This document shows positions 9,361 to 9,434 of a stretch of DNA of 9,434 nucleotides, piece by piece. The DNA is taken from NCBI RefSeq assembly GCF_003334255.1, contig NZ_QOWU01000088.1. One strand, written 5' to 3'. How positions within the stretch are numbered: the first letter of the stretch is position 1; each line of letters starts with the position of its first letter. A program made the position numbers and the translations under genes. The DNA is from Escherichia coli (GTDB taxonomy: Bacteria; Pseudomonadota; Gammaproteobacteria; Enterobacterales; Enterobacteriaceae). Under the pieces are notes generated by a model that was not told where the DNA came from, did not search any database, and saw only the letters and a program-made list of their open reading frames with translations.

Positions 9361-9434
9361 GGTAATGCTGCCAACTTACTGATTTAGTGTATGATGGTGA
9401 TTTTAAGGTGCTTGCGTGGCTTCCATTTCCATCA
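9361..9434 (+). mobile_element. IS1: IS1 insertion sequence (divergent isoform), 5' terminal 74 bp (left inverted repeat at 9361-9383 through the insA start); element body extends right of the window
   Basis: ggtaatgctgccaacttactgatttagtgtatgatggtg matches the IS1 left end (GGTGATGCTGCCAACTTACTGATTTAGTGTATGATGGTG) at 38 of 39 positions. Downstream sequence is diverged but recognisable. GTG at 9416 opens a frame encoding (M)ASISI, matching variant InsA proteins (MASISIRCPSC...). Confidence 0.88.
9416..9434 (+). CDS. insA: IS1 InsA N-terminus, partial (3' end outside window)
   Basis: GTG GCT TCC ATT TCC ATC encodes (M)ASISI, the recalled N-terminus of IS1 InsA variants. Truncated by the window edge. 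Confidence 0.55.

Follow-up and report, generated by a model that had tools for sequence, protein, structure and literature searches.

We consider it very probable that the last 74 nt of the window (the whole stretch of Escherichia coli DNA analysed here, 9,434 nt in length) represent the start of an IS1F-type insertion sequence, from its left terminal repeat through the promoter region to the sixth codon of insA, and that they belong to an old chromosomal copy in yedJ which marks a 3.1-kb deletion and has been inherited. An IS1F-type end at this place is already known and ordinary. The match to K-12 IS1F runs on the plus strand from 9361 to the window end at 9434, with only 74 of the approximately 768 nt of the element inside the window; everything beyond nt 74 was read from relatives. 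Both window ends lie 74–77 nt inside an IS1, giving the stretch the look of a short-read contig broken at repeats, and the window may be the whole contig.

Window 9361–9434 reads GGTAATGCTGCCAACTTACTGATTTAGTGTATGATGGTGATTTTAAGGTGCTTGCGTGGCTTCCATTTCCATCA and was compared with the reference copies of E. coli K-12 MG1655, IS1A (NC_000913.3, 19796–20563) and IS1F (4518472–4519239 of the same record). It agrees with the first 74 nt of IS1F at 74/74 positions, with 0 mismatches, and with IS1A at 65/74 (87.8% identity); the nine mismatches fall at element positions 4, 40, 45, 53, 54, 55, 64, 65 and 70, and at all 9/9 of these discriminating positions within nt 1–74 the window carries the IS1F base. 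The first-pass annotation had called this right-hand IS1 a sequence-divergent isoform, citing a GGTAATG terminus in place of GGTGATG and several substitutions near the insA start, and these are the same nine differences that separate the window from K-12 IS1A (left end GGTGATG...GTTTTTGAGGTGCTCCAGTGGCTTCTGTTTCTATCA). Its canonical sequence equals K-12 IS1A at every position quoted, so that a faulty reference can be dismissed outright as the source of the differences, which are real. Sequencing error and chance are likewise ruled out by the identity to K-12 IS1F and by 4,381 E. coli records whose best match to the 74 nt is at least 99% identical. RefSeq annotates sequence identical to the 74 nt as IS1 family or IS1-like element IS1F family transposase. 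Our naming draws on the IS1A and IS1F copies of K-12, on the product names given by RefSeq and on 5,426 complete genomes, and IS1F is the closest named isoform in this comparison.

Three features are contained in the 74 nt. The left terminal inverted repeat (IRL; 9361–9383, plus strand), GGTAATGCTGCCAACTTACTGAT, is identical to that of IS1F and has A for G at position 4; its length of about 23 bp and its GGT(A/G)ATG start are those of the IS1 family. Inside and beside it, at the position of the insA promoter, a consensus scan identified one promoter-like site against 0.2 expected (9368–9395, plus strand), consisting of CTGCCA, a 16-nt spacer and TATGAT. Its bases are the same in IS1A and IS1F, and from general knowledge of IS1 it is presumably the functional insA promoter. 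The insA reading frame opens with a GTG at 9416 (9416–9434, plus strand), which corresponds to element position 56, the same position at which K-12 insA7 begins; insA of the IS1 family, the gene for a zinc-finger/HTH protein, characteristically starts some 55 nt in from the element's left end. The six codons visible in the window translate as V(M)ASISI, compared with MASVSIS for InsA of IS1A, just as had been noted from the sequence before.

The window sequence from 78 to 9360 is 100% identical in three complete genomes, MLI023K1 and MLI023K2 (Mali) and PRO_A-1412-6M-A (Tanzania). These genomes share one structure at the yedJ breakpoint with two unrelated strains, E2865 (cattle, Japan) and MB06021 (seawater, Galapagos): the truncated yedJ gives way to a complete IS1, beyond which hchA begins without its 5' end. 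The E2865 copy (locus L004, 3551–4318) is 768 bp long, as expected for an IS1 of about 768 bp, and is identical to IS1F at 763/768 positions (99.35%) and to IS1A at 700/768 (91%). The MLI023K1 copy (locus L001, 3962–4724) is 763 bp long and 98.7% identical to IS1F (758/768). By the ISfinder convention, copies with less than about 5% nucleotide divergence are isoforms of one another, and near-identity to the IS1F reference is seen both in the window (74/74) and in these complete copies at the same locus. The copy at this junction in strain 300709 is named 'IS1-like element IS1F family transposase' by RefSeq. We infer that the copy in the source genome continues as it does in these relatives.

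Complete F-type copies are laid out like a standard IS1: InsA has 91 aa, the A6C frameshift motif is at nt 307, and InsAB' has 232 aa. The programmed frameshift is annotated by RefSeq in the relatives. The complete InsA of the relatives scores 41.1 bits against the Zn-binding domain model NF050000 (cut-off 28), and InsAB' reconstructed from E2865 scores 243.8 bits against the IS1 family transposase model NF033558 of NCBIfam (cut-off 100). The latter protein is identical to InsAB' of IS1A at 217/232 residues (94%); the fact that 68 nucleotide differences yield just 15 amino-acid changes indicates that the isoforms diverged while still functional. The ends of complete F-type copies pair at 20/23 positions, the left and right repeats (IRL and IRR) differing at 3/23, compared with 5/23 in IS1A, and it is the A at position 4 that makes IRL match IRR there. 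This agrees with the description of IS1F ends as distinct and more symmetrical (PMC12903888).

The window's own sublineage appears to carry a damaged version of this element. In MLI023K1 a 5-bp deletion (ACAAC) at element positions 648–652 (about 4609 of locus L001) shifts the reading frame of the InsB' C-terminus, and in both MLI023K1 and PRO_A-1412-6M-A the transposase, with a CDS of 693 nt, is labelled 'frameshifted' by RefSeq. Judging from these relatives with identical flanks, the copy in the window's sublineage probably has the same deletion and is probably a transposase-defective relic, dead because the deletion frameshifts insB'. Such a relic could still move in trans through InsAB' supplied by consensus copies.

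The yedJ side of the element retains the 3' 438 nt of this HD-domain phosphohydrolase gene (8923–9360, minus strand), truncated by IS1 according to both the annotation of relatives and mapping onto K-12; in MLI023K1, E2865, MB06021 and PRO_A-1412-6M-A the remnant is annotated as an HD domain-containing protein without its N-terminus. In K-12 coordinates the sequence before the element breaks off 258 nt into yedJ, and the sequence after it resumes at nt 124 of hchA. The element thus replaces 3,136 bp of K-12 sequence, namely the 5' end of yedJ, drpB, the sRNA gene rseX, the yedS pseudogene and the 5' end of hchA. The flanks of the complete copy in the relatives (…GAACTCTTC or …CGAACTCTTC before it, CCAAAACCG… after it) are no target-site duplication of the direct 8–9 bp kind that a simple IS1 insertion leaves. 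Since the flanks lack a duplication and are 3,136 bp apart in K-12, the copy bridges a deletion. The missing duplication says something about how this copy came to be and does not affect its assignment to the family; it makes the original insertion event impossible to reconstruct, and the mechanism of the deletion is one that we infer. IS1 is known to produce adjacent deletions or recombination between IS1 copies. We postulate that the insertion in yedJ was followed either by an IS1-associated adjacent deletion or by recombination between two former IS1 copies; the resulting yedJ–IS1–hchA structure was then inherited by a large E. coli lineage.

The distribution of the two junctions is consistent with such a history. 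Of the 5,426 complete genomes, 455 (~8%) match a 100-nt probe that spans the junction of yedJ with IS1, and the IS1–hchA junction is present in 443/5,426, which argues that the IS1F-type copy is an old, inherited lineage marker. About 8% of complete E. coli genomes are thus without rseX, drpB and an intact hchA.

With the visible part amounting to just 74 nt, one alternative is that the element is a mosaic, or another isoform, in which an IS1F-type left end has been joined to the remainder of a different IS1 type by recombination or gene conversion. Each of the closest relatives has more than 30 IS1 matches, so that conversion would find partners, and stretches of as many as 51 nt are identical between the two isoforms. 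Against this, the three complete copies read at the locus are F-type throughout, with identities to IS1F of 98.7% in MLI023K1 and 99.35% in E2865, and the copy in PRO_A-1412-6M-A agrees with that of MLI023K1 in its frameshifted CDS of 693 nt, both genomes having flanks 100% identical to the window. We therefore regard a mosaic as very unlikely. The position of the window ends raises a different concern, as stopping 74–77 nt into an IS1 would be typical of contig breaks induced by repeats, and the terminal 74 nt could in that case have been borrowed from another IS1 copy and be foreign to the locus. However, exactly this junction of yedJ with an F-type end recurs in the 455 complete genomes, among them the three that share the identical 9.3-kb flank, and because those three have the junction, an F-type end is what is expected here. 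Given the 455 genomes a misassembled window end is unlikely, and we attach an almost negligible probability to a borrowed one. The preferred reading is accordingly that of a resident IS1F-type copy, F-type along its length.

The IS1 at the opposite end of the window has a different identity and a different age. Its last 77 nt (1–77, plus strand) show 0 mismatches to IS1A nt 692–768 and 3 to IS1F, so this right end is of the IS1A/consensus type, as was implied when the right-hand copy alone was singled out as divergent; the IS1 copies at the two window ends point the same way and are of different isoforms. The left-hand copy adjoins the final 140 nt of fliR (78–217, plus strand), identified by BLAST to K-12 fliR and by a translation that matches the FliR C-terminus, the gene being cut after nt 646 of 786. 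In MLI023K1, with 100% identical flanks, fliR is intact. The fliR–IS1A junction is contiguous in 0/5,426 complete E. coli genomes; four records covered at least 80% of the query, through separate pieces or a weak match to IS1 only, and three of them represent IS1 elsewhere in fliR. The absence of the junction from every complete genome, together with the intact fliR of MLI023K1, suggests that the left A-type copy is recent and strain-specific. The fliR insertion is thus probably recent and probably inactivates flagellar export, predicting a non-motile strain. The suggestion that isoform identity can help to date an insertion is borne out by this pair, the IS1F-type junction at yedJ being present in 455 complete genomes and the IS1A-type junction at fliR in none.

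Two direct IS1 copies bracketing a 9.3-kb segment are the feature that the window shares with a Tn9-type composite transposon. Unlike in Tn9-type elements, the bracketed DNA is native chromosome, fliR-rcsA-dsrA-dgcQ-dcm-yedJ in K-12 order, and the copies, which are of two isoforms, have no common history, one being old and shared by many genomes, the other strain-specific. A composite transposon of the Tn9 kind was rejected on these grounds, namely the native interior and the disparity between the left (0/5,426) and right (455/5,426) junctions, and there is no sign that the 9.3-kb unit has ever moved. A composite transposon would be expected to recur elsewhere as one unit, enclosed by a single target duplication. 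A more elaborate version would have the segment from the fliR remnant through rcsA, dsrA, dgcQ and dcm to the yedJ remnant act as a heterologous composite, its outer ends mobilised or amplified by the consensus InsAB' of the left copy and the 9% divergence between the two copies protecting it from RecA-mediated loss. A good response of IS1F ends to consensus transposase acting in trans has been reported (PMC12903888), but we hold this scenario to be extremely unlikely.

Comparison with named systems places the locus copy closest to the K-12 IS1F between fecI and yjhU, long known as the 'type IV' IS1. The two agree throughout the 74 nt, in the terminal GGTAATG as in the initial MASISI of InsA, and the complete locus copies of the relatives are 98.7–99.35% identical to K-12 IS1F, with the same length in E2865. 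They differ in site (fecI/yjhU for K-12 IS1F, yedJ/hchA for the window-locus copy) and in their lesions. K-12 IS1F (locus L002, 2473–3240) has two private defects that are absent from the E2865 copy, C at nt 156, which replaces His34 of InsA with proline (H34P) in the zinc-finger region beside the zinc-finger cysteines, and A at nt 542, which converts TGG to a TAG stop in insB; the copy in the MLI023K1 sublineage has its 5-bp deletion in place of these defects. The K-12 reference for IS1F has thus itself decayed; wild strains contain F-type copies that are intact. With the consensus elements IS1A, IS1E and IS1R, the F-type element shares the family, a length of 768 bp, terminal repeats of about 23 bp, insA, the A6C –1 frameshift at nt 307 and insB', but it is approximately 9–10% divergent from them, with 9 differences in the first 74 nt and 68–73 over the whole element, a range that includes a published count of 73 mismatches (90.5% identity) between K-12 IS1F and consensus IS1A (PMC12428005). 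K-12 IS1F is reported to be essentially immobile on its own (PMC12428005). Supplied with consensus InsAB' in trans, IS1F is reportedly the most readily mobilised of the non-consensus copies, possibly by virtue of its more symmetrical ends (PMC12903888).

The native interior of the window contains two further features. The diguanylate cyclase gene dgcQ (yedQ; 2863–4557, minus strand) has an in-frame TAG at 3622–3624 where K-12 has CAG (Q312*), which splits it into ORFs of 311 and 251 aa with the GGDEF domain downstream of the stop. As the region is 100% identical in MLI023K1, MLI023K2 and PRO_A-1412-6M-A, the dgcQ Q312* allele is also present in these genomes. The gene for the small RNA DsrA (1766–1852, minus strand; Rfam RF00014, 102.5 bits) is in its normal place between yodD and yedP.

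We surveyed both isoforms across the 5,426 complete genomes with isoform-specific 71-nt probes (element positions 40–110) that share no exact word longer than 8 nt. The F-type was detected in 4,235 genomes (78%) at 12,262 places, with a median of 2 per genome; 720 of the places are on plasmids (~6%) and about 94% are chromosomal. The A-type was detected in 4,315 genomes (80%) at no fewer than 59,801 places, with a median of 9 per genome and 12,638 places on plasmids (~21%). By inclusion-exclusion, both types occur together in at least 3,124 genomes (58%). 'Divergent' does not mean rare, with the F-type in 4,235 of 5,426 genomes. The population dynamics of the F-type and the A-type are clearly different. 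The first-pass annotation had presented coexisting IS1 isoforms as known from Shigella; the coexistence is real, but it is no Shigella peculiarity, given the four IS1 types carried by K-12 (PMC12428005) and the presence of both types in at least 58% of complete E. coli genomes. Isoform coexistence is the rule in E. coli.

Our findings have little importance beyond bookkeeping and leave existing knowledge of IS1 unchanged, although the population figures neatly illustrate how an active isoform contrasts with one that is largely quiescent: the F-type is as widespread as the A-type but low-copy and chromosomal, and the A-type is high-copy and often on plasmids. At the level of this genome, the isoform call tells the two IS1 copies of the window apart, and the F-type copy at yedJ–hchA serves as an old lineage marker.
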